A DNA stretch of 64,000 nucleotides from a virus (Duplodnaviria; Heunggongvirae; Uroviricota; Caudoviricetes; Demerecviridae), in IMG/VR virus record IMGVR_UViG_2974620381_000001, positions 48,928 to 112,927 of that record; one strand, 5' to 3'. The translations under genes and the position numbers were made by a program. Shown here piece by piece: positions 7,190-64,000 of the stretch. Under the pieces are notes generated by a model, which was given only the letters and a program-made list of their open reading frames with translations, ran no database searches and was not told the origin of the DNA. The stretch's first letter is position 1; each line of letters begins with the position of its first letter.

Positions 7190-7600
7190 TTACTTAGTAA
7201 TAGCTCGGATTGCTTCTGCCAGATGAGCAGCCGCTTTACCGGTCAGTTTGTCGATAATTGCATCATCCAGAAAATCTGGTGCTAAGCCAGCGTCAGAGAA
7301 TGCTGCGCGAAGGTCGGCATGGGCTTGAGCTTTGGAGGTACGAGAACCACCAGAAGCTTTTTCTCCAGTAGATGCGCTAGATTTAGAAGTAGAACCAGCA
7401 GCTTTCTTAATATACAAACCTGCTTTAGTCAGCTTCATACGAAAACCGTTCGGAGTTACACCGTTTTTCTGGGCAATTTCGCTAACAATTTCCATGCTAA
7501 CACCCGGACGTTCATCCTCTGGGAATTGCTCCATACGAGCAACGTATTCGGAAGACATTTTTTCGAACAGTTCATCAGTCCACTGAGTTGGAGTAGTCAT
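7190..7600 (-). CDS. hypothetical protein (S/A-rich linker)
   Basis: 136-aa ORF; T5-type promoter on minus strand at ~7625-7665. Confidence 0.5.
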   Translation of the reverse strand: MTTPTQWTDELFEKMSSEYVARMEQFPEDERPGVSMEIVSEIAQKNGVTPNGFRMKLTKAGLYIKKAAGSTSKSSASTGEKASGGSRTSKAQAHADLRAAFSDAGLAPDFLDDAIIDKLTGKAAAHLAEAIRAITK

Positions 7601-8720: not shown

Positions 8721-8963
8721 TTACGATTCCTTGAGCAAAGAAGCAAGTTCAGCATAGACTTTATCTAACTCAAAGCCGATGCGAAGAGACACGTTTGTTT
8801 TCCGTTGTTTAAGTAACCACTCGGATATGTTAGGGATGCCAGCTAATCTGTGTGGTACCACCCTACATAGCTTTTCCGAAGTGTCGTAAACAGGAATTTT
8901 ACGTTCTTTTACTGGAAACTTCCTTGTTTCCCATTTTTTATTCTTCACTGTCATTTCTAGCAC
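8721..8963 (-). CDS. hypothetical protein
   Basis: 80-aa ORF. Confidence 0.4.
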   Translation of the reverse strand: MLEMTVKNKKWETRKFPVKERKIPVYDTSEKLCRVVPHRLAGIPNISEWLLKQRKTNVSLRIGFELDKVYAELASLLKES

Positions 8964-11592
8964 CTAGCTCTGACATTGCTTCATCATGCATATGTTTTTC
9001 CTCGTCAGTCATGAACTTATAAGGAATTGGCATACACTCGATTTTACAATAGGTTCTGTACCAGTCTACAATATTTTCAGTGTTCATATCCTTACCAATA
9101 CCCATCATACCAAGATACATTCTAGCATATTTTGGGTTAGCACTCTGACCTGTTTTAAGGAAGAAGTCTTTCTTCTTACCTTTCAGAGCCTCTATGAATG
9201 GTTTAATGGTCACATTTGAACACTTCTTAATATCTTCCCAGAACATCTCGTGCATTTTATGGAAGAATGCAGCTCGATCATTCGGTTTATCCTTAATATA
9301 CTGTTCAACATGCTCAACTGTTACATCTTTAATAGACTCAAGATGATAATAACGAACAAGAAGTAGTTTAGCTTCATACGCATCCGCATGACGTGGAGCA
9401 CAATAATCCGGAGTTGAATGTAGAATAGCTTTAATTCGCTCTTCTGTGTACTCTTTACCAGCACCTTCAATAGTTCCCCAGCTTTCGCTGAAAATATCAA
9501 TAGTTGCACCCTGATCAAGCAAGTAATAACGTAAAGTACTAGTATAGTTTCTAGATTCCAACTCTCTACGACGTGCGTATAATTGCTGTGCTAACTCCAG
9601 CCAACCTTCATCAATATTATATTGTTCAGAACCTGCGGAGAATCCACTAGTGGATTTATCAATAAAATAATAGATATTTTGAGCACCACGGTCGCGCCTG
9701 ATTGCTTGGAAACGCATGTTTGGCGCTTGATTACTGGTTCTAGTAATAACAAATACATTATCGAAATAGTTAAAGTCAACACCACTCGTTACGGATGGGC
9801 TACATAATAAGCAATCAATTTGTTGATCAATTAGCTCATTAGTTGTATAATCCAGAATACGTCGAATATCCACATCTGAGGTAGAGTTTGAATGGATTTC
9901 CTTAACTAACGCACCCGTATTACGACGCAGTGCCATACCCTTCTCATTCAGCTCATCAGGACCACAATCAGATACTAGAATAGATTTCTCACCCATCTCT
10001 AGAGAAGTCTGAAGTGCAACCCAAATACTGGATTCATCAGGGAACTCATAAGCATGAGCTTTTGACAGCATCTTACGATGATGATTATAAAATGCGACAG
10101 GTTTATCAAACTCAATCAAAGAACCATATGCTTCAATTGTTTCTGCACTAATATCACCATCAGATAATATAATTATTTTCGCAGTTGCAAGAATATCCCG
10201 AAGAACCTGAATACATTCGCGACGTTGCTTAACAACCGGGGCGAATAATAGGTCATTCATTACTGCATCACATTCATCGATAAAGATTGCATCAATTTGA
10301 CCAATAAAACTCTTGAATTTATGCAAAGAGTGAATAGTTGTGGACATACGGTCAATAGCACCGCGCTTAAAATTAAGCATATCTACAGACTTATCATATT
10401 GTCCTGCACTAAATTTCTTAGCATTTGAAGATACCAGTGCTCGAGTATTGGTAATTGCTAAGAAATTACCCTTAATAACTCCCGAATCTAACCAACGCAC
10501 AACCGCCGTAGTTTTACCTGTACCTAGACTTGCTTTTACAAAAGTCATATAACCTTCTGGTGGTACAGTATTTAATTTCAAGAAGTTATCAGTCTCTAGA
10601 GAGTTAGTTTCTAGCTTTTTAAGTGGAATACCTTTTAAAACATCCGGTATATCACGTTTAGAATTATTAACAAACGCTTTCAGAGCCTGCTTACGACCGT
10701 TGTTAAAGTAGTCTTGAATATTACGACTATTATCTTTAGTTGCAATATACTCTGATAAGGCTGGGCGGATTTCTTTTTCTAGCCATGCAAAATCAACACC
10801 ATCCTCTAAAGCCCTGTGATAGAGTTTAGGAATAATACGTAGATACACTCCATCCTCAGCTTCTTCTAGTTCGCTGATAGTTTCCTCTACTTTATCAGAG
10901 GCAGCCTTTTTACCTTTAATTTGATCGAGTAAGGAGTAAAATTCCTCTTTAAACTCTCCTCTAGTTGTTTCATAGTCAACTAGATTATTAGGTAAATTTA
11001 CCTTCGAACCTTTAACAAATACCAGACGTGAAGCACCCTCCGCCTTAAACGGATCGACTATACCATCAGTAAATAAAGGATCAGCAAAGTAATGGAGCTG
11101 TACGGAAGAGTAATAAGCTAAGTCGGCAATATCAAAGCCATACTTTTGTCTACTACTTTCGTTGATAGATGTAAATAAGAACTTGATTTGACCCTGAGTT
11201 ACTTTAACATTAGATTCTAGTATTAAGTGCATTCGGATACCTGGTTTTAGGCCAGCCGAAGATGATGCATGAGCGATAAACCCTGCATCAAGAGGAAACA
11301 TATCCTCACTAATACTATTTAACATTCTAATAATATGTCGAGCCATGCCAACAAGATCAAACTTGTTACAACCACCTGTATCTACAATACCATCCACGTC
11401 CATTGCAATTATATGACTTGGGTTAGATACATTAAAGTTGCCCTTCTTACGTCGCACATTATTTTTAGGTGCAAGACATCGACCTCGTACCGCAACGATA
11501 TGAGGGTCAGACGTTAAACGTCTCATAAGAGGGAGCATTTCTACTAGGGTTTGAGGATCAACTTCATCAATTACATCAAACTTGAAGGGCAT
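8938..11592 (-). CDS. SF2 helicase with N-terminal primase-polymerase-like region; putative replication origin-binding protein
   Basis: Walker A SLGTGKTTAV, Walker B/DExx FIDECD, N-terminal AMDVDG acidic motif; in-frame ORF extends upstream to 11925 but first ~110 codons atypical, so start set at MPFKFDV (complement 11590-11592). Confidence 0.6.
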   Translation of the reverse strand: MPFKFDVIDEVDPQTLVEMLPLMRRLTSDPHIVAVRGRCLAPKNNVRRKKGNFNVSNPSHIIAMDVDGIVDTGGCNKFDLVGMARHIIRMLNSISEDMFPLDAGFIAHASSSAGLKPGIRMHLILESNVKVTQGQIKFLFTSINESSRQKYGFDIADLAYYSSVQLHYFADPLFTDGIVDPFKAEGASRLVFVKGSKVNLPNNLVDYETTRGEFKEEFYSLLDQIKGKKAASDKVEETISELEEAEDGVYLRIIPKLYHRALEDGVDFAWLEKEIRPALSEYIATKDNSRNIQDYFNNGRKQALKAFVNNSKRDIPDVLKGIPLKKLETNSLETDNFLKLNTVPPEGYMTFVKASLGTGKTTAVVRWLDSGVIKGNFLAITNTRALVSSNAKKFSAGQYDKSVDMLNFKRGAIDRMSTTIHSLHKFKSFIGQIDAIFIDECDAVMNDLLFAPVVKQRRECIQVLRDILATAKIIILSDGDISAETIEAYGSLIEFDKPVAFYNHHRKMLSKAHAYEFPDESSIWVALQTSLEMGEKSILVSDCGPDELNEKGMALRRNTGALVKEIHSNSTSDVDIRRILDYTTNELIDQQIDCLLCSPSVTSGVDFNYFDNVFVITRTSNQAPNMRFQAIRRDRGAQNIYYFIDKSTSGFSAGSEQYNIDEGWLELAQQLYARRRELESRNYTSTLRYYLLDQGATIDIFSESWGTIEGAGKEYTEERIKAILHSTPDYCAPRHADAYEAKLLLVRYYHLESIKDVTVEHVEQYIKDKPNDRAAFFHKMHEMFWEDIKKCSNVTIKPFIEALKGKKKDFFLKTGQSANPKYARMYLGMMGIGKDMNTENIVDWYRTYCKIECMPIPYKFMTDEEKHMHDEAMSELGARNDSEE

Positions 11593-12194
11593 TGAAGCTG
11601 GTTTACCTTCAGGATGCTTTGAGGAAAATCTTTTAGCAAAAAGATAGTCTTCTGCTTTAACTTCTCGCCAATTGCCTGTGGCTAAATCGCGATGAAATCC
11701 TGCATGACCTTGTAGGATTGAAAACACAACAATACTCCTGTGTTGGAAATGAAATAAGTTTTCTTTAGGACTATTCAGAAAGAATAGAACAACTGTTACT
11801 GTCAATTTCTCAACAATTAATCGCAAATACTGAAGGGGGGTGGCAACTTCCCCTTTCACGCTACACTGCCGCTTCACTATACCGCACAAATCCTTGAGGA
11901 TGGCCGCTAAGCCAGATTTGCTCACCTAATGCTTCATGTACTAGCTCATACTAGATGTAGTATACCTTACGTCATCACTTCTCAGAGTTTTTCACTCTTC
12001 CCGTCTCACTTCACAACCACCTCACACTAGGTTGCTTCGAGGCCTTACCAGGGTTCCTACGGGATGTAGATCGCTAAGTATTCTATTAACTATTTGTTTA
12101 AAAACTAACACGTAACAGTTAAAACAACCCTTAATGGGGCAGCCTAACTGTTCCGTATCGCGGATTGTAAACAAGAAAAATTAGCAAAATCAAT

Positions 12195-12528: not shown

Positions 12529-12910
12529 TTAATCCCGGAACATAAATCCCAACACGATTTAATTGTTCTTTAGCTTCTGTGAGAGTATCTGGAGTGTACT
12601 CCCAAATATCACCTTCCACCTGTAAAAGATGGGGCGAACAACCATCATCAGGCACACGACATATGGCCAAACCACGTGGATGGAACAAAGAGAAATTTAG
12701 TGCAACAATTAAACCCATAGCAGACAACTCATTCCAATCCAATTCCCATTCCCTAGCGTAGCCTGATAGGAAAACACCAATACAGGGATCGTCTATTTGC
12801 TGCTCCGGAAAAGTGAAGGAGGCTTGTCTTACCCCCAACCAACGTTGTAGCAGCTTCTCCGCACGCTTCACCAAACTAGGATCAATCTGACGCCAGTATA
12901 CTTGTTCCAT
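12518..12910 (-). CDS. hypothetical protein (paralog of 12920-13348)
   Basis: 130 aa; shares PCIG...MGL[IV][VF]ALN...PGL motifs with the adjacent gene. Confidence 0.5.
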   Translation of the reverse strand: MEQVYWRQIDPSLVKRAEKLLQRWLGVRQASFTFPEQQIDDPCIGVFLSGYAREWELDWNELSAMGLIVALNFSLFHPRGLAICRVPDDGCSPHLLQVEGDIWEYTPDTLTEAKEQLNRVGIYVPGLNDE

Positions 12911-42155: not shown

Positions 42156-42384
42156 TGCTTTAATTAGTGAAATTATGTTAACACGTCTTGCAGAACTGCA
42201 AACTCTTCGAGATGAATCTCAGAATAACTTATCCTACCATAAACAGATGGTAGATACTCTTACTACTCGTATTGAAACTTACGAGCGTGATATTGCAGCA
42301 TTACAAGCTCTTTTCTCTGTATCAGCACCAGATACACTAGAACAGCCTGTCGTATCTCAGCCGGTAGAAACAGCATCTAGTTAA
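42148..42384 (+). CDS. hypothetical coiled-coil protein
   Basis: 78-aa ORF overlapping previous stop. Confidence 0.4.
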   Translation: MSNALISEIMLTRLAELQTLRDESQNNLSYHKQMVDTLTTRIETYERDIAALQALFSVSAPDTLEQPVVSQPVETASS

Positions 42385-48622: not shown

Positions 48623-49374
48623 TGTCAGTATTAGTCGGTTTACATGGTGAAGCTGGTTCGGGAAAAGATACCGTTGCAAAATTAATTATCGATTGGTGTA
48701 ATGACACGTATCCAACGTGTTTATCCAGTCGTTATAGTTTTGCTAAGCCCGTTTATGAACTTGCATCCGTAATCCTCGGTGTAACTCCAGAGTTTCTAGG
48801 AGAGCGCAGAGGAAAAGAGATTGACCAATGGTTTACGGTCACACAATCTCAATTGGAGCGAGCCAGAGATGTGTGGTTTAAGTACGGTATCGATAAGTTT
48901 GAAGACTTCTCGTACGTTTGGCCTATTTTTGAGGAAAAATATCTTAATCCTCAACAACTTATCTCAGAGAATAAAGAAGACGGACTTTATAGTTTATTTA
49001 TTTCTCCGAGAAAAATGTTACAGCTCGTAGGGACAGAGCTAGGAAGGCAGCTGGTGCATGAACGCATTTGGCTCATAATTCTGGAGCAATCCATCGCTAA
49101 AGACGACCCAGATGTCGCCGTAATAACAGATGTTAGATTCCCCAATGAAGGAGAGTTACTCAGAGAAACAAATCATTTAGATATGGATTCTTTGATAGTA
49201 AATGTAGTACCCGCTGAGCAGAAGTTCACTATTAAATCAGATCATCCATCTGAAAGTGGTATTCCTGCAAAATATATTACTCACGAATTAGTTAATAAAT
49301 TCGATGGTATCAATAACCTTAAACTAGAAGTTTATAACTTCTGTGACTTAGAGCTAGAACCACTAGTTGGATAA
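48622..49374 (+). CDS. deoxynucleoside monophosphate kinase
   Basis: 250 aa; N-terminal P-loop GLHGEAGSGKDT like T4 gp1 dNMP kinase. Confidence 0.6.
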   Translation: MSVLVGLHGEAGSGKDTVAKLIIDWCNDTYPTCLSSRYSFAKPVYELASVILGVTPEFLGERRGKEIDQWFTVTQSQLERARDVWFKYGIDKFEDFSYVWPIFEEKYLNPQQLISENKEDGLYSLFISPRKMLQLVGTELGRQLVHERIWLIILEQSIAKDDPDVAVITDVRFPNEGELLRETNHLDMDSLIVNVVPAEQKFTIKSDHPSESGIPAKYITHELVNKFDGINNLKLEVYNFCDLELEPLVG

Positions 49375-57848: not shown

Positions 57849-58295
57849 ATGAGAGAGAAAGTAAATGAATTATTAATCGAGGAAGCTAACAACTTTCCAA
57901 TAAATAGATTCATTAAATCGGATGGATCTATTAATAGAACTAAGATTAAGCAGCTACATCCCGACTTCCAGCAAGAAGCACTAAACCTTATATTTATCAA
58001 GAAAGCCGTTGCAGCTCACGGGGCTTTCTTCGGATATGAGCGTGTAAATTATAAGACAATGCAACAGCAAGTCGAGATTTATTGTCCAGATCATGATGGT
58101 TATTACTGGCAGACTGCTAGATCTCATTTAGAAGGGCATGGTTGTCGACTGTGTGCACACAAGGTTGTGCAGCGTGTCACGGATTATGGAACTTATACCG
58201 TACCAGCATGTTACCATAAATTTGTAATTGACGATAATCATATAGTTTGGTATAATAAGTTTTCAAAGCTAAGAATGGAGATAAGTAGTGAGTAG
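57849..58295 (+). CDS. hypothetical protein with CxxH...HxxC...C..C cluster (possible Zn site)
   Basis: 148 aa from ATG 57849. Confidence 0.4.
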   Translation: MREKVNELLIEEANNFPINRFIKSDGSINRTKIKQLHPDFQQEALNLIFIKKAVAAHGAFFGYERVNYKTMQQQVEIYCPDHDGYYWQTARSHLEGHGCRLCAHKVVQRVTDYGTYTVPACYHKFVIDDNHIVWYNKFSKLRMEISSE

Positions 58296-58578
58296 CTATA
58301 TTGTATGGTCAAACCCACTAGCAGCACTTAGTAACAAACTATTTAAAACAACGTGGGGGTATAATGAGATAGACTTAGGTAGTCGTCCAATACCAAATAA
58401 ACACCCTTTAGTTCCAGAGCTGTATAGGGTAGTGATAAATGGCACAGAGTATTTGGTTGATAAATTTGACAGAAAACGTTTACTAGAGGGTATCTACGAT
58501 AATTCTACATCGATAAATGAATTAGTAGAACATGCCCAAATATATGATAAAAGCTGGATGTTAATATGGAGATCATAG
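58288..58578 (+). CDS. hypothetical protein
   Basis: 96-aa ORF. Confidence 0.4.
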   Translation: MSSYIVWSNPLAALSNKLFKTTWGYNEIDLGSRPIPNKHPLVPELYRVVINGTEYLVDKFDRKRLLEGIYDNSTSINELVEHAQIYDKSWMLIWRS

Positions 58579-58799
58579 TAATTATTTTAGCAGTTATGTT
58601 ATTTATTGTAACATTTGTATCATTTGCTATTATGCGCAGAGCTAGAGAACTAGCGGAAGATATAACAAAATTACGTGGTGAGTTGGCTGCTCTTAAATTA
58701 CAGCGTGAGGCTTTAAAGTTGTTTGTGATTCAGGGTAGCGTAGAACATACAGCAGAAGACTTCATCACGTATCTCAAACGTTACATGGGAATTAAATAA
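58566..58799 (+). CDS. small membrane protein
   Basis: 77 aa, N-terminal TM + coiled coil. Confidence 0.35.
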   Translation: MEIIVIILAVMLFIVTFVSFAIMRRARELAEDITKLRGELAALKLQREALKLFVIQGSVEHTAEDFITYLKRYMGIK

Positions 58800-58984
58800 T
58801 GGAAACTCTTTTTCTTTTAATGCTCGTAGGTTCGTTAGTAGTTATATTAGCACTTCTACTAATCTGCAATATTCTTAATAATAAGAATTTAGAGTTAAAG
58901 TGTGAGAACCAAATCCTTAATCGTGAACTTAAACAATATAACCTAGCAGCGCACAAGCTACTAGACAAATTGGAGAATAAGTAA
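58799..58984 (+). CDS. small membrane protein
   Basis: 61 aa, N-terminal TM + coiled coil. Confidence 0.35.
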   Translation: METLFLLMLVGSLVVILALLLICNILNNKNLELKCENQILNRELKQYNLAAHKLLDKLENK

Positions 58985-59589
58985 TGACTTTATATGCACA
59001 ACAACCTGTTCAAGTAGTACCAGACCATGAGTTAAATACATGGGATTATGATTTTAAAGACTTAACTGCCACTGTACAGTTCAAATCTATGAAATTAACC
59101 TTTGCACACACTGATATTAAAGCCTGTAAAGATCTTGAGCATAAATTAAAAGAAGCTCGTAAGATTTTTGGAAAAGCCCGTATCCCCGCTGATAATCTAA
59201 TTAATACATTAATCGATGCTGGTTATAAACTCGTGAAGACTGAGGTGAACCGTCCTAGTACTCCTGTGACTGTTGGAGGTTCCTGGACCAAAAGTGGTAT
59301 CGCATTTAATCCTAAAATAACGTCGGAAATGCACAATGTTCCATGTGGTGGCACTATAGAAAATAGTTCCACATATCGAGTTGGTGAAGATTATGGGCCT
59401 TCTGTACAGCTGAAACATACCCAAGAAGCTTTTGAATCTGATATGAAAAGCGTAGCGCCTGCGGATGCTGAAGGTTTTAAAAGTCCCATCTATGTTACTC
59501 ACTTTAATAATCTTAGACCTGGGAGTATAAATGATGCTATTCTTGAAGCGTTGGGAGCTGCTCTTAATGAAGATAAAAGAGGTAATTAA
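58984..59589 (+). CDS. hypothetical protein
   Basis: 201-aa ORF. Confidence 0.5.
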   Translation: MTLYAQQPVQVVPDHELNTWDYDFKDLTATVQFKSMKLTFAHTDIKACKDLEHKLKEARKIFGKARIPADNLINTLIDAGYKLVKTEVNRPSTPVTVGGSWTKSGIAFNPKITSEMHNVPCGGTIENSSTYRVGEDYGPSVQLKHTQEAFESDMKSVAPADAEGFKSPIYVTHFNNLRPGSINDAILEALGAALNEDKRGN

Positions 59590-59936
59590 TGATACTTGGT
59601 AAAACAAAAATAACTTCTGCTGGTGACGATTTAATTACTCTTAGTCTTTACTATAAAGATGAAAATGTAGAAATAGAAACACTAGAGTATATTCTAATAA
59701 CTACTAATAAGCCCAAAATAGGAGAGTTATTTGATATAATATCTAGAGTCTCTGCTAGGGAAGATGTTCCAAGTATAACACCAAAGAATATAGCTCACTT
59801 AGCACAACAACTAGGAATCCTGTGGTATAAAGTAGATCTTCCAGCTAAAGAAAGAACCAAAGGAACCTTTGCAGAGGTTGCAAGAAAACCTAAGACAGAA
59901 AATAAAGAAACAGGGGAGCAAGCGTCTGATATATGA
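59589..59936 (+). CDS. hypothetical protein carrying helicase-like C-terminal tail ...ETGEQASDI
   Basis: 115 aa; last 8 residues identical to C-terminus of the DnaB-like helicase (2141-3613). Confidence 0.5.
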   Translation: MILGKTKITSAGDDLITLSLYYKDENVEIETLEYILITTNKPKIGELFDIISRVSAREDVPSITPKNIAHLAQQLGILWYKVDLPAKERTKGTFAEVARKPKTENKETGEQASDI

Positions 59937-60646
59937 TTAAAGAAGCCGAAAAATTAAAACGTCTCATTCAGTTAGCGCGTGGTGCTACACAAAAGAGCCT
60001 TTCTCAGCTAACTGATGAAGAAAAATATGCAGTAATGTTTTTAGGAGATCATTATCCTGCTAAGTGGGATAAAGGTAAGATCAAATATGATCGTGATGCA
60101 AAACGAGTAGTTTGGTCAGGCTCATATGTGGAGGTGAATAAAGCGTTGAAAGCTTTAGATCCTGAAGCAAAGGGTTTCTCTTCTAATGCTATTCATATTC
60201 TAATCGATGAAGATCTCCCAAGATTTAAGGAAGCATCATTTAAAGAAGCATTAGCTAGCGAAGATCTTATCCCTTTCAAACATGGCAAATATGCCCACCT
60301 TCCTCCACTAGAAAAAGAGAAACCAACTCTAGTTAAAGATGAAGTTTATCGTGGGATTGGCACGATGTTAGCGAGTTTGACTGTAGCTCTCCATAAAGAT
60401 CTAGAGTTAACGCCCTTAGAAAATGCTGTGCATTTCATGTGTCATAAATACGAAGATACATTTAAAGAGCTATGTAAGTCGCTAGGAATGCCAAGTTACA
60501 CGATATTAAACTACGCTCCTGAGTATACTAGAGCAGCTCGCGGAACTATGGATTACGATGATACAGGATCCACTGCTTCCTATTTAGCAACTTATATCTA
60601 CTTCGCATCCTTAGGTATCAAACTCAAATCCAAGAAGGAGGAATAA
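59933..60646 (+). CDS. hypothetical protein
   Basis: 237-aa ORF; last gene before the 1.7-kb repeat region. Confidence 0.5.
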   Translation: MIKEAEKLKRLIQLARGATQKSLSQLTDEEKYAVMFLGDHYPAKWDKGKIKYDRDAKRVVWSGSYVEVNKALKALDPEAKGFSSNAIHILIDEDLPRFKEASFKEALASEDLIPFKHGKYAHLPPLEKEKPTLVKDEVYRGIGTMLASLTVALHKDLELTPLENAVHFMCHKYEDTFKELCKSLGMPSYTILNYAPEYTRAARGTMDYDDTGSTASYLATYIYFASLGIKLKSKKEE

Positions 60647-60696
60647 AAGTTAACAAAAAGTTCTTGCATTCTCATACCCAAACATGTTATAATAAT

Positions 60697-60866
60697 CTCA
60701 TAGATTAACAACTACTCTAGTTGATTAACTCTAGGGGCGATGATTATTACACGAATGTCTCGTATAGCTTGCGGCCTAGCAACAGCGGTATGACGGCATG
60801 AGTACTCACGTAATTAATCACGCGCCCCCAGGAGAGACTCTCATGAAATTGGGGGTCTCTTTTTCT
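60697..60866 (+). ncRNA. candidate small RNA (promoter-to-terminator unit, ~170 nt, no ORF)
   Basis: Promoter TTGCAT-18-TATAAT (60664-60693); downstream GC hairpin (CCCCCAGGAGAGAC...GGGGGTCTCT) plus TTTTTCTTTAT at 60815-60866. Confidence 0.4.
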
Positions 60867-61020
60867 TTATATTATTTAAATATTTTTAATGGCAATATCT
60901 GTGTTCAAGATGATACACCTGTTGCCGTTCATCTGCTAGGATGGCACAACACTTTCTTCTAGACTCCTAAGTTTCTAGGAATAGTTGAGCACAAATTCTA
61001 GAGATCACACTAAAATATTC

Positions 61021-61757
61021 ATCGGATTTGCACATATTCTAGGGCAGTTTTCTTCTCATATTATATTCTTTAGGCCGGTTTTCCTATATAGGGCGGTTTT
61101 AGGGAGGGCGGTTATTTCTAGAAGACATTTTTCGAAAACACATTTCCAGAAATTACTGTCGGATTTGCACACTGATATTCTAGAAATTTATGGTCGGATT
61201 TGCACAAACGCCTAAGTTTTTAGGAACTCTTACTCTCCTGAAAATAGCAGCATTATTTCGGGCCGAAGGCCCATGATTGCCTGAGTTTTTAGAGCCACAG
61301 AAATTTTCACTTGTCAAGCTATTTTGCCCCATTTTGCTAATAAAATTTTACTTTATCTGCACCTATCCCAAATCTTCCCAAATTATCTCAACTCTTCCCC
61401 AAAATCCCCGCAAATCAGGTGCTCCGCACCAAACATGCGCCCCATCCTTCTAGCCCCCAAATTTCTCTCGCTCTCTCATCTTCTCCTCAAACCCACACAA
61501 TCACACACCCTCCAATCGAAGTCACAAAAATCTTGTCGGATTCGCACAAATAAACTCATGTCGGATCTGCTCATACTCTAGCTAATTCCACAGGATTGAT
61601 GCGCAGCATCGGATTGCTGGAGTTTTTAGGAAAATTCATTGTCGGATTTGCACACTATAAAAATTTTTCGGGTCGGATTTGCACACTACCAAAAATTGTC
61701 GGATTCGCACATACATGCCCGCACGTAACACCCGTGGAGCAATGTCGGATTTGCACA
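61021..61757. repeat. nine dispersed 14-bp iterons GTCGGATTTGCACA (two with 1-2 mismatches)
   Basis: Copies at 61021, 61158, 61193, 61535, 61560 (degenerate), 61641, 61672, 61698, 61744; all same orientation. Confidence 0.8.
61360..61530 (+). other. G-poor polypyrimidine (C/T/A) tract of ~170 nt
   Basis: Plus strand contains almost no G between 61360 and 61530 (ccc/ctc/tcc runs). Confidence 0.7.
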
Positions 61758-61789
61758 AAAGCGCAGGGCAATTGCCCTGCGCTAAATAC

Positions 61790-61990
61790 GAATGATAATA
61801 AGAATCATTCTCATTTAAAAAGCGGAATGAGAATGATAATAATTCGCATTTAGAAAGTGAAATGAGAATCAATCTCATTTAAGAAAGGGAATGAGAACTA
61901 TTCAAAAAGTGAAATGATTATCGGTTAGATAGTGGAATGTGAATGATAATAATTCGCATCTAAGAATGGAAGTGAGAAACACTGTTATTT
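61790..61990. repeat. array of GRAATGAGAA(T) repeats with internal palindromes
   Basis: At least six copies (cGGAATGAGAATg, tGAAATGAGAATc, gGGAATGAGAACt, tGAAATGATTATc, tGGAATGTGAATg, GGAAGTGAGAAAc); perfect palindrome AAATGAGAAT-c-ATTCTCATTT at 62298-62318. Confidence 0.7.
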
Positions 61991-61993
61991 AAG

Positions 61994-62086
61994 TTATCCA
62001 CAGACTTATCAACAGCACGATTTGATTTGACAGAATCCTAGCCATTTTGAAGCGTTATTAACAGACTTATCCACAGCTTATCCTAC
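61994..62086 (+). promoter_or_regulatory. DnaA-box cluster (2 perfect TTATCCACA + 3 one-mismatch variants) embedded in 18-bp direct repeat ACAGACTTATC[CA]ACAGC
   Basis: TTATCCACA at 61994-62002 and 62067-62075; TTATCAACA 62007-62015; TTATTAACA ~62055; TTATCCTAC 62078-62086. Confidence 0.65.
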
Positions 62087-62359
62087 TGTATAAATATACA
62101 GTATTCCTATGCAGTGAATAATTCTAATATACCGCTAAAACGTCCTGAATCGCATTCTAACGCGTTTAATTTTGGTGGGGATACTAAAACAAGGGCAAAA
62201 TTGGAGGAGGCTTAAAAATTAGTTAGCCCGCTAACGATCACACAAGGCGACACGTAACACCCTAATCATTAGCAGGCTAACCATCGCGAGCGCGGTCAAA
62301 TGAGAATCATTCTCATTTGAGAATTGGGGGCACTCCCTGGTAGTTGCGCCCCGTGATTA

Positions 62360-62554
62360 TTAGTCTGGTAGTCGATGCGTGATTTTTTCCTCCTCCCCGT
62401 AGGAATCCACCAAATGCTGATAATAACCATCGTGATCATAAATCACTTTATCATACTCGCCACGCTCGACCGCTTGCCGGTTTTCCGGCGTATCGGGCAC
62501 ATAAAAAACGTCAACCATTGTGGTAGTTTTGGTTACAACAATTTTATTGCTCAT
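62360..62554 (-). CDS. hypothetical protein
   Basis: 64-aa ORF, first gene after the repeat region, opposite orientation to early genes. Confidence 0.4.
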   Translation of the reverse strand: MSNKIVVTKTTTMVDVFYVPDTPENRQAVERGEYDKVIYDHDGYYQHLVDSYGEEEKITHRLPD

Positions 62555-62570
62555 AATAACCCCCGTTATT

Positions 62571-62732
62571 AATTATTTGCGTAAATATACGCTTGCCAAT
62601 AGTCCAGCTAGAAAGCCCGCCGGTACACCAAATGAAGCCACACCGGGAACACTAGCACCATGAGCATATAAAGCCCAGCAAATTACATAAGGCAACAACG
62701 GAAACATGCCAGCTATTAAAAACTTTTTCATT
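62571..62732 (-). CDS. small membrane peptide
   Basis: 53-aa hydrophobic ORF with GGTGG SD. Confidence 0.3.
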
Positions 62733-63087
62733 GCGCCACCTTTCGAAACGCTGTTTCAATACTATCCGCAGTGGATTGAATATACGCGCCTTTCATTATC
62801 AGGCGCTCGGTGCATATCTTGCGGAAAATATTAATAAAATCATCTTCATTTTCTGCAATTAACGCTTCACCCATGACCTGAATATCACAAGATGCGAAAG
62901 TCAAAAATTGAAACGCTAGTTCACGGGCAACGACCGCATTGATTTTATAATGCGCGTTGCCTTCATAAATATTAATAACGCCCTTATAAGCTGGGGAAAG
63001 CTGGTTTAAATAGTTTGCTAATAATGCCGGACGGCAATTAGCAACAAAGCGATTGCCTTCATAAATTATCATTTGCATAGCTCCCAA
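62728..63087 (-). CDS. hypothetical protein
   Basis: 119-aa ORF; start ATG overlaps stop of an upstream 39-aa hydrophobic ORF (63077-63196). Confidence 0.45.
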   Translation of the reverse strand: MGAMQMIIYEGNRFVANCRPALLANYLNQLSPAYKGVINIYEGNAHYKINAVVARELAFQFLTFASCDIQVMGEALIAENEDDFINIFRKICTERLIMKGAYIQSTADSIETAFRKVAQ

Positions 63088-63726
63088 ATAGTTCCGCCGA
63101 TGATCATTAGCTGACTAATAATTATCAGAATAAAACCAATTGAAGGCAGGACGCCCCAAAAACGAAAAGCCGTTTTAATTTGCTGAATCATTTGACAGCC
63201 TCCCGATTAGATAGCCAGATAAAAGCATAAAAATCCCCAGTAAAAGGGGATCATTCTTAAATAGGGTGGCGGTAAAACCGCCCACCATTGCAAGGAGAAT
63301 AACAATAACGCTTTTCATAGTACCCCACGAAACGCAGCGTAAAAGGTGGCAAAATGTTTAACCGTTTCAGCGATCACGTTGCCACGCTTATCAAATTTCT
63401 TTTCTGTAACACGGAAGGCGTTTTTATTCCGCGCTACATAATTCGATTTTACAATCAGGACGCTCAAACGTGTTTACATCCACCAGCTTAAAGCCTTTCG
63501 AACGAGCAAGAGAAACGTTGCGGATCATTTTTATTCTCCTTTACTAGTCATGCAGCCCAGCAGATAAGAAAAAACGGCGATACCCGCGCCGACAATAACG
63601 GCGTGAACACCGAAAGCTATTGCAAACAACGATAAAATAGCGCCCAAGATACCCGCTAAAATAGCTCTAAAAATAACCATTTTCATCCTCCTAGTTAGCG
63701 GGGCGAAAATAACGCCCCGTTATTAA

Positions 63727-63958
63727 TTACATTAAAACAATTTTAGCGGCTTGTTTTTTGGTGCAATGTTCCGCCTTCAGGGTATCCAGCAAAAAGCCAG
63801 CCGTTTGCTGATCGATTTTATCGGCGTTATACAATTCTTGGATGGTATTATAAGTTTTAGCAATGCCGTATTCTTGCACCATTTCGTGAATAATAACGCG
63901 ATTAGATACCCAGCCTTGAGCGGTAAACAGATGACTAGCAGAAGAATAAGCAACCATT
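63727..63958 (-). CDS. hypothetical protein
   Basis: 77 aa from ATG after GGAGGC SD (track start further upstream). Confidence 0.4.
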
Positions 63959-64000
63959 TTAAGCCTCCAAATTTTTGGGAAAATTTTCAACCGCCCTCAA

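Follow-up and report, generated by a model that had tools for sequence, protein, structure and literature searches.

Bacteriophage T5 pauses after 8% of its genome has been injected and then restarts, and how it does so has been a question since the 1960s. Only one candidate cis element is at hand, a gene-free block near the end of the first-transferred segment, and we ask here what this block is in a stretch of 64,000 nucleotides of viral DNA (referred to throughout as the window; IMG/VR record IMGVR_UViG_2974620381_000001, positions 48,928 to 112,927), where it occupies 60647-62359. The original prediction, made from the letters alone, had read it as either a T5-type injection stop at the boundary of the terminal repeat or an iteron-type origin. 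In a megablast search, 60600-62400 was 100% identical to phage NBSal005 (MN994504.1; Tequintavirus, Demerecviridae; record 109527-111327, so that window position equals NBSal005 record position minus 48927), and more than 100 T5-like phages matched it at 87-93%, the matching segment lying 8.5-10.8 kb from their left end and overlapping the annotated terminal repeats. The gap separates the convergent pre-early and early genes, and the inner end of the long terminal repeat (LTR) falls inside it. We consider it probable, at roughly four chances in five, that in this block NBSal005 has its orthologue of T5 "Repeat Region 3" (RR3), that is, a non-coding, cis-acting control region made of several parts, and not a gene.

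This assignment is carried by the comparison with T5, whose annotation was transferred to NBSal005 through pairwise alignment with AY587007. The block is collinear with T5 from ~9240 to ~10560, and every annotated T5 repeat, palindrome and nick, as well as the LTR end, has an ordered counterpart in it (Table 1). The position, order and orientation of the elements of the T5 RR3 region (~9194-10409) are all shared: palD, the IRD'-spacer-IRC' module with its paired DnaA boxes, the DRC/palE-I array and palJ with its nick are followed by DRD1-6, DRA2/3, the LTR end and DRD7-9, and over the core the two phages are ~90-100% identical in windows of 30 nt. The differences are few. palC, a G+C-rich terminator in T5, is replaced by a AATGAGAATCATTCTCATT palindrome; the segment beside the early genes (60647-60900) cannot be aligned except for a promoter and a 3' motif; one and the same pattern finds four DnaA-type boxes in NBSal005 and three in T5; and the terminal repeat measures 10,822 bp as opposed to 10,139 bp. 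With a Tequintavirus source and base-for-base alignment to RR3, which the literature presumes to be the injection stop signal (iss), the T5-type alternative of the original prediction is upheld.

Table 1. Elements of the gene-free block and its two bordering genes, in window coordinates.
Feature	Window position	Strand	T5 counterpart (annotation transfer)	Basis or remark
Last early (second-step-transfer) gene, 237 aa, QIN93228.1	59933-60646	+		Left border of gap; ORF list and annotation
Sigma-70-type promoter TTGCAT, 18-nt spacer, extended -10 TGtTATAAT	60664-60693	+		By eye from sequence
Candidate small structured RNA, ~170 nt: 5' hairpin, long central hairpin, terminator hairpin	60700-60870	+		
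Highly conserved non-coding segment GATACACCTGTTGCC...TGGCACAACAC	60912-60971			
Three iterons outside terminal repeat	61021-61034, 61158-61171, 61193-61206	+	DRD9, DRD8, DRD7 (DRD1-9 match the nine iterons one-to-one)	
Terminal-repeat junction TTTTTA|GAGCCACAG, boundary 61291|61292, then CTTGTCAAG at 61310-61318	61286-61318		LTR end 10139|10140 (61292|61291)	Exact repeat and T5 map
G-poor, C-rich tract	61320-61533	+	DRA2/DRA3 (61367-61405)	T5 top strand: G-rich
Six iterons inside terminal repeat	61535-61757	+	DRD6 to DRD1	Starts 61535, 61560, 61641, 61672, 61698, 61744
Perfect 24-bp palindrome (12+12) AGCGCAGGGCAATTGCCCTGCGCT	61760-61783	-	palJ and "7.9% major nick"	Inverted repeat; nick site 61761-61768
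AATGAGAA repeat and imperfect-palindrome array	61790-61995		DRC1-4 and palE-I (61790-61965)	Direct and inverted repeat families
131-bp module	61971-62101	+	IRD'-spacer-IRC' (IRD'/DRB/IRC')	Two same-strand DnaA-box pairs
Palindrome TACTGTATAAATATACAGTA	62084-62103		palD	19/20 match to E. coli LexA (SOS-box) consensus TACTGTATATATATACAGTA
Perfect 12-1-12 palindrome TCAAATGAGAATCATTCTCATTTGA, array-unit family	62296-62320			Just downstream of last pre-early ORF
Last pre-early (first-step-transfer) small ORF, 64 aa, QIN93229.1	62360-62554	-		Right border of gap; ORF list and annotation

The block is thus already known (Heusterspreute 1987; Wang 2005; Davison 2015, 2020), since it is exactly T5 Repeat Region 3 that the literature describes as the presumed iss. 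According to Davison (bioRxiv 10.1101/866236), RR3 of T5 and 24 relatives is untranslated, runs beyond the LTR end and holds palC/D, IRD'-spacer-IRC', the DRE/DRC repeats, palE-J and nine DRD repeats, its DnaA boxes forming pairs separated by 3 bp; the same work estimates the T5 first-step shear point at 9618 and proposes that membrane-bound DnaA holds the DNA until A1/A2 cut it free. The non-coding region of BF23 (8.6-10.3 kb; PMC10644984), likened here by its description alone, lies at the same border of first- and second-step transfer and is rich in direct and inverted repeats and DnaA boxes, and a 2026 T5 preprint (10.64898/2026.04.02.716235) names the region the injection stop signal. As written, the finding therefore adds nothing to what has been published on T5, BF23 and 25 relatives, and the interest that is left lies in the mechanism and in three leads, a LexA-like site, Fur-like units and a small RNA. 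None of the three, nor any link between T5 first-step transfer and LexA, was found in the searchable literature, which excluded Davison 2015 and Heusterspreute 1987; all three go unmentioned in Davison 2020, where the words "LexA" and "SOS" are absent.

The block is non-coding and constrained more strongly than the genes beside it. In an alignment of eight phages, identity to T5, Spc35 and Stitch reaches 90-100% over the core (~60900-62200) and is 30-60% in the flanking early gene; the pre-early open reading frames (ORFs) beyond 62560 are essentially unrelated. Conservation extends as far as Klebsiella Sugarlandvirus, in which the junction (61272-61361), some of the iterons, part of the array and the DnaA-pair/palD segment (62052-62111) are retained, and distant relatives keep a gap of 1.4-2.1 kb between convergent genes. 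In Pectobacterium phage My1 (Myunavirus) the annotated repeat end falls within this gap and the order of elements is the same, with a LexA-like palindrome, DnaA pairs 61 bp apart, the AATGAGAA array and iterons. The repeat end of Vibrio phage VF16, whose A1 protein is ~31% identical, is likewise annotated within the gap (A1 identity is ~31-34% for the Vibrio phages and ~45% over a partial match for the Proteus phage), and Proteus phage VTCCBPA139 also has the gap, in a record with one copy of the A1 region and no annotated repeat end. VF16, Vibrio phage Athena and the Proteus phage have DnaA boxes, in pairs or as neighbours, next to CTGT-N8-ACAG, and nothing else can be aligned.

That pairing leads to the part of the block for which a host partner can be named. 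Where the 131-bp module lies, the original prediction had a tight cluster of DnaA boxes inside an 18-bp direct repeat; the boxes do stand close together, in pairs, but there are only two consensus boxes and the repeat measures 24 nt. The pairs are TTATCCACA-gac-TTATCAACA (61994-62014; boxes at 61994 and 62006) and TTATTAACA-gac-TTATCCACA (62055-62075; boxes at 62055 and 62067), so that each of the two consensus boxes, at 61994 and 62067, lies 3 bp from a one-off variant, and the two copies of the direct repeat that contain them are 61 bp apart. The pattern TTWTNCACA is not enriched over the window (12 matches as against 7.7 expected), and the signal is the local pairing; Stitch, Sugarland, IME260, My1, VF16, Athena and the Proteus phage all have such pairs at the corresponding position. 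Between the inverted-repeat arms lies a spacer of 51 bp (62010-62060), as in T5. The inverted partner of the module (IRC-spacer-IRD), equivalent to T5 Repeat Region 2, is found on the opposite strand at record 114828-114958, 3.8 kb deeper in the repeat and beyond the window, with 85-98% identity. In blastn searches of 5,426 E. coli genomes and 72,556 plasmids the module had no match, and a host or plasmid source for it was rejected on this ground.

Directly beside the second DnaA pair stands palD. When the 64 kb were scanned with the LexA consensus at up to 3 mismatches, palD was the sole match, with 0.00 expected, and across the NBSal005 genome high LexA scores were found only at palD and at its Repeat Region 2 copy (17/20; record 114826-114845). 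Except for a flip of its central AA/TT, palD is invariant in eight phages of three genera (Tequintavirus, Epseptimavirus, Sugarlandvirus); with the paired DnaA boxes it occupies the same edge of the gap in these genera and in Novosibvirus and the Vibrio T5-like phages. Of the distant relatives, VF16, Athena and the Proteus phage retain CTGT-N8-ACAG next to their DnaA boxes, and My1 has a one-base variant of it. Like the LexA operators of Gammaproteobacteria (TACTGTATATATATACAGTA), palD has CTGT-N8-ACAG around an AT-rich spacer; unlike them, this predicted site lacks a clear overlapping promoter, belongs to a virulent phage and is part of a long inverted repeat. A weak promoter-like match (9/12, TATACA-16-AATAAT; 62095-62122, plus strand) starts in palD and reads away from it. 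The centre of palD changes from AA to TT or back among closely related phages, leaving a palindrome in either orientation, which is consistent with exchange between the inverted copies in Repeat Regions 3 and 2. Paired DnaA boxes together with a consensus LexA box are the elements shared all the way from phages of Escherichia to those of Vibrio and Proteus, which points to specific host proteins that can be removed genetically.

Towards the iterons the module gives way to the array. The original prediction of a 200-bp repeat array with perfect palindromes stands as far as the AATGAGAA repeats at 61790-61995 are concerned, but the palindromes inside it are imperfect (71-90%) and the perfect or near-perfect ones lie beside it (61760-61783, 12+12; 62296-62320, 12-1-12; 62084-62103). 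Two T5 landmarks fall here, the "7.9% major nick" (T5 9661-9668), which maps into palJ, and the first-step-transfer shear point 9618, which maps to ~61809, inside the array. On the minus strand palJ is followed by TTTTG and would act as an intrinsic terminator of pre-early transcription, and a terminator of -16.7 kcal/mol is annotated at the same position and strand in HdH2. The array units, moreover, resemble Fur boxes. The best match of the window to the Fur 19-mer GATAATGATAATCATTATC, at 16/19, is located at 61794; at 14-16/19 there are four positions in 61794-62296 and about five in the other 63.5 kb (simulation mean, 5.2 strand-counted hits). The 7-1-7 pattern TGATAATnATTATCA, at up to 3 mismatches, matched 18 times in the window compared with 8.9 expected, and 7 of the 18 are in 61793-62315. 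Units at 61793-61958 and 62296-62320 score 13-16/19, each with 2-3 mismatches in the 7-1-7 pattern (2 in the case of the 62296-62320 palindrome). Because the motif is AT-rich and was picked after the fact, we regard the likeness of the AATGAGAA/DRC units to Fur boxes as suggestive only. Two further observations concern the other end of the terminal repeat: a copy related to the 62296-62320 palindrome occurs at record 121006, ~35 bp from that end, and a perfect 7-1-7 Fur consensus, TGATAATGATTATCA, is found near it inside dmp (record 120808).

The original prediction also gave the block a promoter and terminator of its own, and both were recovered, at the opposite edge of the block, next to the early genes. 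The promoter (60664-60693) was missed by a consensus scan because its -35 hexamer fits in only 3/6 positions; TTGACA/TTGCAT-N17-18-TGTTATAAT nevertheless occupies the same place in K38, HdH2, Spc35, Stitch, Sugarland, IME260, My1 and the Proteus phage. The hairpin of 14 pairs at 60830-60863, detected by a terminator scan and followed by a T-run, coincides with a terminator annotated in HdH2. Read from the sequence, this hairpin on the plus strand and palJ (61760-61783) on the minus strand terminate both of the converging transcription units. The predicted RNA downstream of the promoter has a minimum free energy of -63.2 kcal/mol versus -39.0 for shuffled sequences (z = -5.9); relatives share the closing stem CTAGG...CCTAG and the 5' hairpin, the latter from T5 to My1 and the Proteus phage, and differ in the body (30-60% identity). 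Scans of 58000-64000 for Rfam families and tRNAs gave nothing meaningful. The conserved non-coding segment that comes next (60912-60971) is 93-100% identical in T5, K38, HdH2 and Spc35 and 70-93% in Stitch.

By homology with the T5 experiments, DNA enters from the 64000 side of the window, so that the LexA-like box, the DnaA pairs and the Fur-like array, from 62103 down to 61790, would arrive last before the pause, and the end of the first-step DNA and the 7.9% nick would lie at ~61760-61810. The pause needs no synthesis of phage protein, and the sites conserved in the family fit abundant host proteins that are already present; for these reasons the most economical mechanism that we infer is a host nucleoprotein complex serving as brake or marker, which extends the DnaA idea of Davison. 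In it, DnaA, as he proposed, together with LexA and possibly Fur, would assemble at 62103-61790 and keep the DNA at the envelope, or mark it there, until it is freed by A1 and A2. In its full form this proposal takes palD for a genuine LexA operator of high affinity that always stands beside paired DnaA boxes, the AATGAGAA array for a binding site of Fur or a Fur-like protein, and all of these for parts of what may hold the first-step DNA until A1/A2 act; it adds that a hitherto undescribed small RNA gene (60664-60870), with a promoter found across the family, may mark the edge of second-step DNA. We put the joint proposal forward tentatively and at less than even odds.

Several observations weigh against such a role. 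The injection stop is placed by the position of the T5 shear point, which is itself approximate. Proteins bound to DNA inside the cell would not obviously stop DNA that is still outside, and a link to the membrane exists only for DnaA. The Fur resemblance is moderate (13-16/19), was noticed post hoc among many possible motifs and is weak or absent in the Vibrio phage. As one arm of a long inverted repeat, palD could owe part of its conservation to that function, and T5 stays viable when hegG to 017 are deleted, so that the Repeat Region 2 partner is probably dispensable, if this is one contiguous deletion. The gap of Proteus phage VTCCBPA139 contains no T5-type iterons. T5 plates on recA laboratory strains, and RecA-dependent cleavage of LexA therefore cannot be required for restart. 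The BF23 genome paper (PMC10644984) notes the non-coding region at the border of first- and second-step transfer and also that experiments on its role are lacking. LexA cleavage as the trigger of restart, after A1-driven breakdown of host DNA, was dropped as a candidate: apart from growth on recA strains, A2 mutants degrade host DNA, yet second-step transfer requires A2.

The remaining elements of the block are grouped around the terminal-repeat junction. The original prediction hinged on a terminal-repeat boundary within the block, and one is found at 61291|61292: the NBSal005 record opens with a 10,822-bp segment that is identical, with zero mismatches, to the segment starting at window 61292. 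The boundary is the same base as T5 10139|10140, the cut point of Spc35 is identical, and K38, HdH2, Stitch, Sugarland and IME260 carry the junction motif as well, the motif being conserved in eight phages. In the other copy of the repeat, the virion DNA has its physical right end at this point, and terminase must therefore recognise and cut here; the block contains the cut site that forms the right genome end, as expected of a pac- or cos-like site. A TTGACAA (CTTGWCAAG) motif lies 21-31 nt inside the right repeat end in the T5-group phages, My1 and VF16 (window 61310-61318; ~12824-12830 in My1 and ~7406-7412 in VF16), preceded by GGGGGCAAAA-like sequence, and a similar motif occurs in the gap of the Proteus phage at ~5349. 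It could be part of the terminase recognition site; as a promoter, TTGACA was rejected, as no -10 element is conserved in My1 or VF16. The tract that follows the junction had been called a G-free pyrimidine tract, which it is not: with 14 G in 214 nt it is G-poor (6.5% compared with 19.9% overall; GC skew down to -0.71), and its longest G-free run, 50 nt, is the third longest in the window.

On both sides of this junction stand the nine same-orientation 14-bp iterons (GTCGGATTTGCACA) of the original prediction, which were confirmed. Five copies are exact, three differ at a single position and one at two; the window holds 10 matches where 0.23 are expected by chance, and 0/100 shuffles reach 10. 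The logo of 80 copies from nine phages reads (G/a)TCGGATT(T/c)GCACA, with information falling sharply in the flanks, and in Vibrio phages the iterons are reduced to the core GTGCAAAT. Their spacings are irregular (137, 35, 342, 25, 81, 31, 26 and 46 bp) and follow no helical phase. In T5-group phages, IME260, My1 and VF16 they lie on both sides of the repeat end, at 100-450 bp, and none is near the other end of the terminal repeat. As they flank the junction wherever they are present, they should act where it is intact, in the left repeat or in a concatemer, and their constant position about the terminase cut suggests a role in end formation rather than in the stop. They would bind a putative factor and most likely serve end formation or packaging, or the restart of transfer, and not the initiation of replication.

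How far, then, might packaging alone account for the block? In this reading it is chiefly a site of end formation, with terminase bound through its small subunit to the iterons on both sides of the junction motif and cutting at TTTTTA|GAGCC through its large one, and with pausing caused elsewhere or otherwise. The right-end cut, which falls at a conserved motif midway along the block, the iterons at their distances on either side and the TTGACAA motif recurring across subfamilies are all in its favour, and since T5 ejects its left end first, packaging should, by last-in-first-out, start at the right end, that is, at the block. Terminase cuts flanked by short repeats are familiar from SPP1 pacL/pacC/pacR and from the R sites of lambda cosB; in NBSal005, by comparison, the flanking distances are far larger, nine copies point one way and terminase binding is putative. 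The other end of the repeat, which also needs a cut, is without nearby iterons, and the DnaA, LexA and Fur-like module 500-800 bp away, with its inverted partner, is left unexplained. As the chief function of the block we find this possible but unlikely; for the iterons and the junction it is plausible, and it is compatible with a host complex at the module, the two not excluding one another.

In the rival reading of an iteron-type replication origin, a phage or host initiator binds the nine iterons, DnaA binds the adjacent boxes, and a skewed or AT-rich stretch between them unwinds as in plasmid theta origins. Several same-orientation short repeats near DnaA boxes are indeed shared with P1, F, pSC101, R6K and lambda ori, the boxes here (61994-62075) being 237 bp, thus <250 bp, from the nearest iteron; the groups of iterons are separated by a tract of skewed composition, and a further iteron pair occurs in mid-genome in an exonuclease gene. 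The phage also encodes a 979-aa protein, annotated as hypothetical (window 8941-11877, minus strand), that scores above the Pfam threshold for Herpes_ori_bp (PF02399), and the iteron variant ATTCGCAC resembles the herpes UL9 box, GTTCGCAC. The match, however, covers helicase motifs only (aa 444-583 against profile positions 51-197), neither terminus matches the DNA-binding part of UL9, and no Pfam family matches the first 400 or the last 250 aa, for which reason the UL9-type link was rejected as support for an origin. Unlike the iterons of known origins, those of NBSal005 lack tandem two-turn spacing and any known adjacent initiator gene, straddle a terminase cut and are without similarity to any of the 72,556 plasmids, while the Proteus relative keeps DnaA and LexA sites without iterons. 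Three electron-microscopy studies cited by Davison (bioRxiv 10.1101/866236) put the origins of T5 close to the genome centre, and he points out that the replication genes are absent during first-step transfer. We consider an origin improbable, and this half of the original prediction is not supported.

No better placed, and if anything slightly worse, is the view that the block merely buffers transcription, its hairpins stopping converging polymerases and its palindromes being terminators or RNA elements of a long 3' untranslated region with no function at the DNA level. Terminator-like hairpins do lie on both strands; a minus-strand transcript of 61740-62110 would fold far better than shuffles (z = -6.8), and the promoter, RNA and terminator at 60664-60870 form a unit. 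Yet terminators need neither 1.7 kb nor nine oriented iterons, paired DnaA boxes and an exact LexA consensus; strong RNA folds come automatically with palindrome-rich DNA, the AT-rich palindromes have no T-runs, and the conservation exceeds that of the neighbouring genes. Least credible by far is a degraded or mis-annotated coding region. That no credible ORF lies in 60646-62360, as had been predicted, was supported: the longest open frames are 54-85 aa, mostly with TTG starts, none of them is positionally conserved in eight relatives, and the five longest have no Pfam match. Several annotators have called ORFs of 40-45 aa here (K38_016, K38_017, HdH2rev_00018) and a frame of 85-114 aa recurs across the G-poor tract in 6/8 phages, but the annotated mini-ORFs differ among records, and the recurring frame (85 aa in NBSal005) opens with TTG or GTG, is interrupted in K38 and Spc35 and runs on a G-poor strand on which 2/3 stop codons cannot occur. 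The peaks of conservation follow the repeats and not any frame.

Other explanations were tried for the iterons themselves. With ATTTGCACA the iteron is one mismatch from TTWTNCACA, but its invariant GTCGGA half is unexplained by a weak DnaA box and the likeness is weaker in the TTC variants and in the Vibrio phage, and this reading was not adopted; a sigma-54 reading fails on the GG/GC spacing, and the block holds no match to the IHF consensus. An association of nicks with iterons was suggested by the 7.9% nick, 4 bp from DRD1, and was dropped because other major nicks have no annotated DRD copy nearby and 368 bp separate the 64.7% nick from the iteron pair in mid-genome. Beyond the gap, a tenth iteron (59322-59335), equivalent to T5 DRD10, lies inside the gene two upstream, and the adjacent pair at NBSal005 record 42252-42280, in the gene for an SbcC-like exonuclease subunit, is equivalent to T5 DRD11/12. 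Finally, the exact repeat junction helps to correct the annotation of genome ends in the T5-like group. In Sugarland, the boundary predicted by PhageTerm is ~350 bp from the conserved junction motif TTTTTAGAGCCACAG (Sugarland 2001-2357 as against IME260 1987-2015) and comes immediately behind the last iteron, where a GCGCAGG site corresponds to the nick site of T5; what is annotated there may reflect the nick and not the true end.

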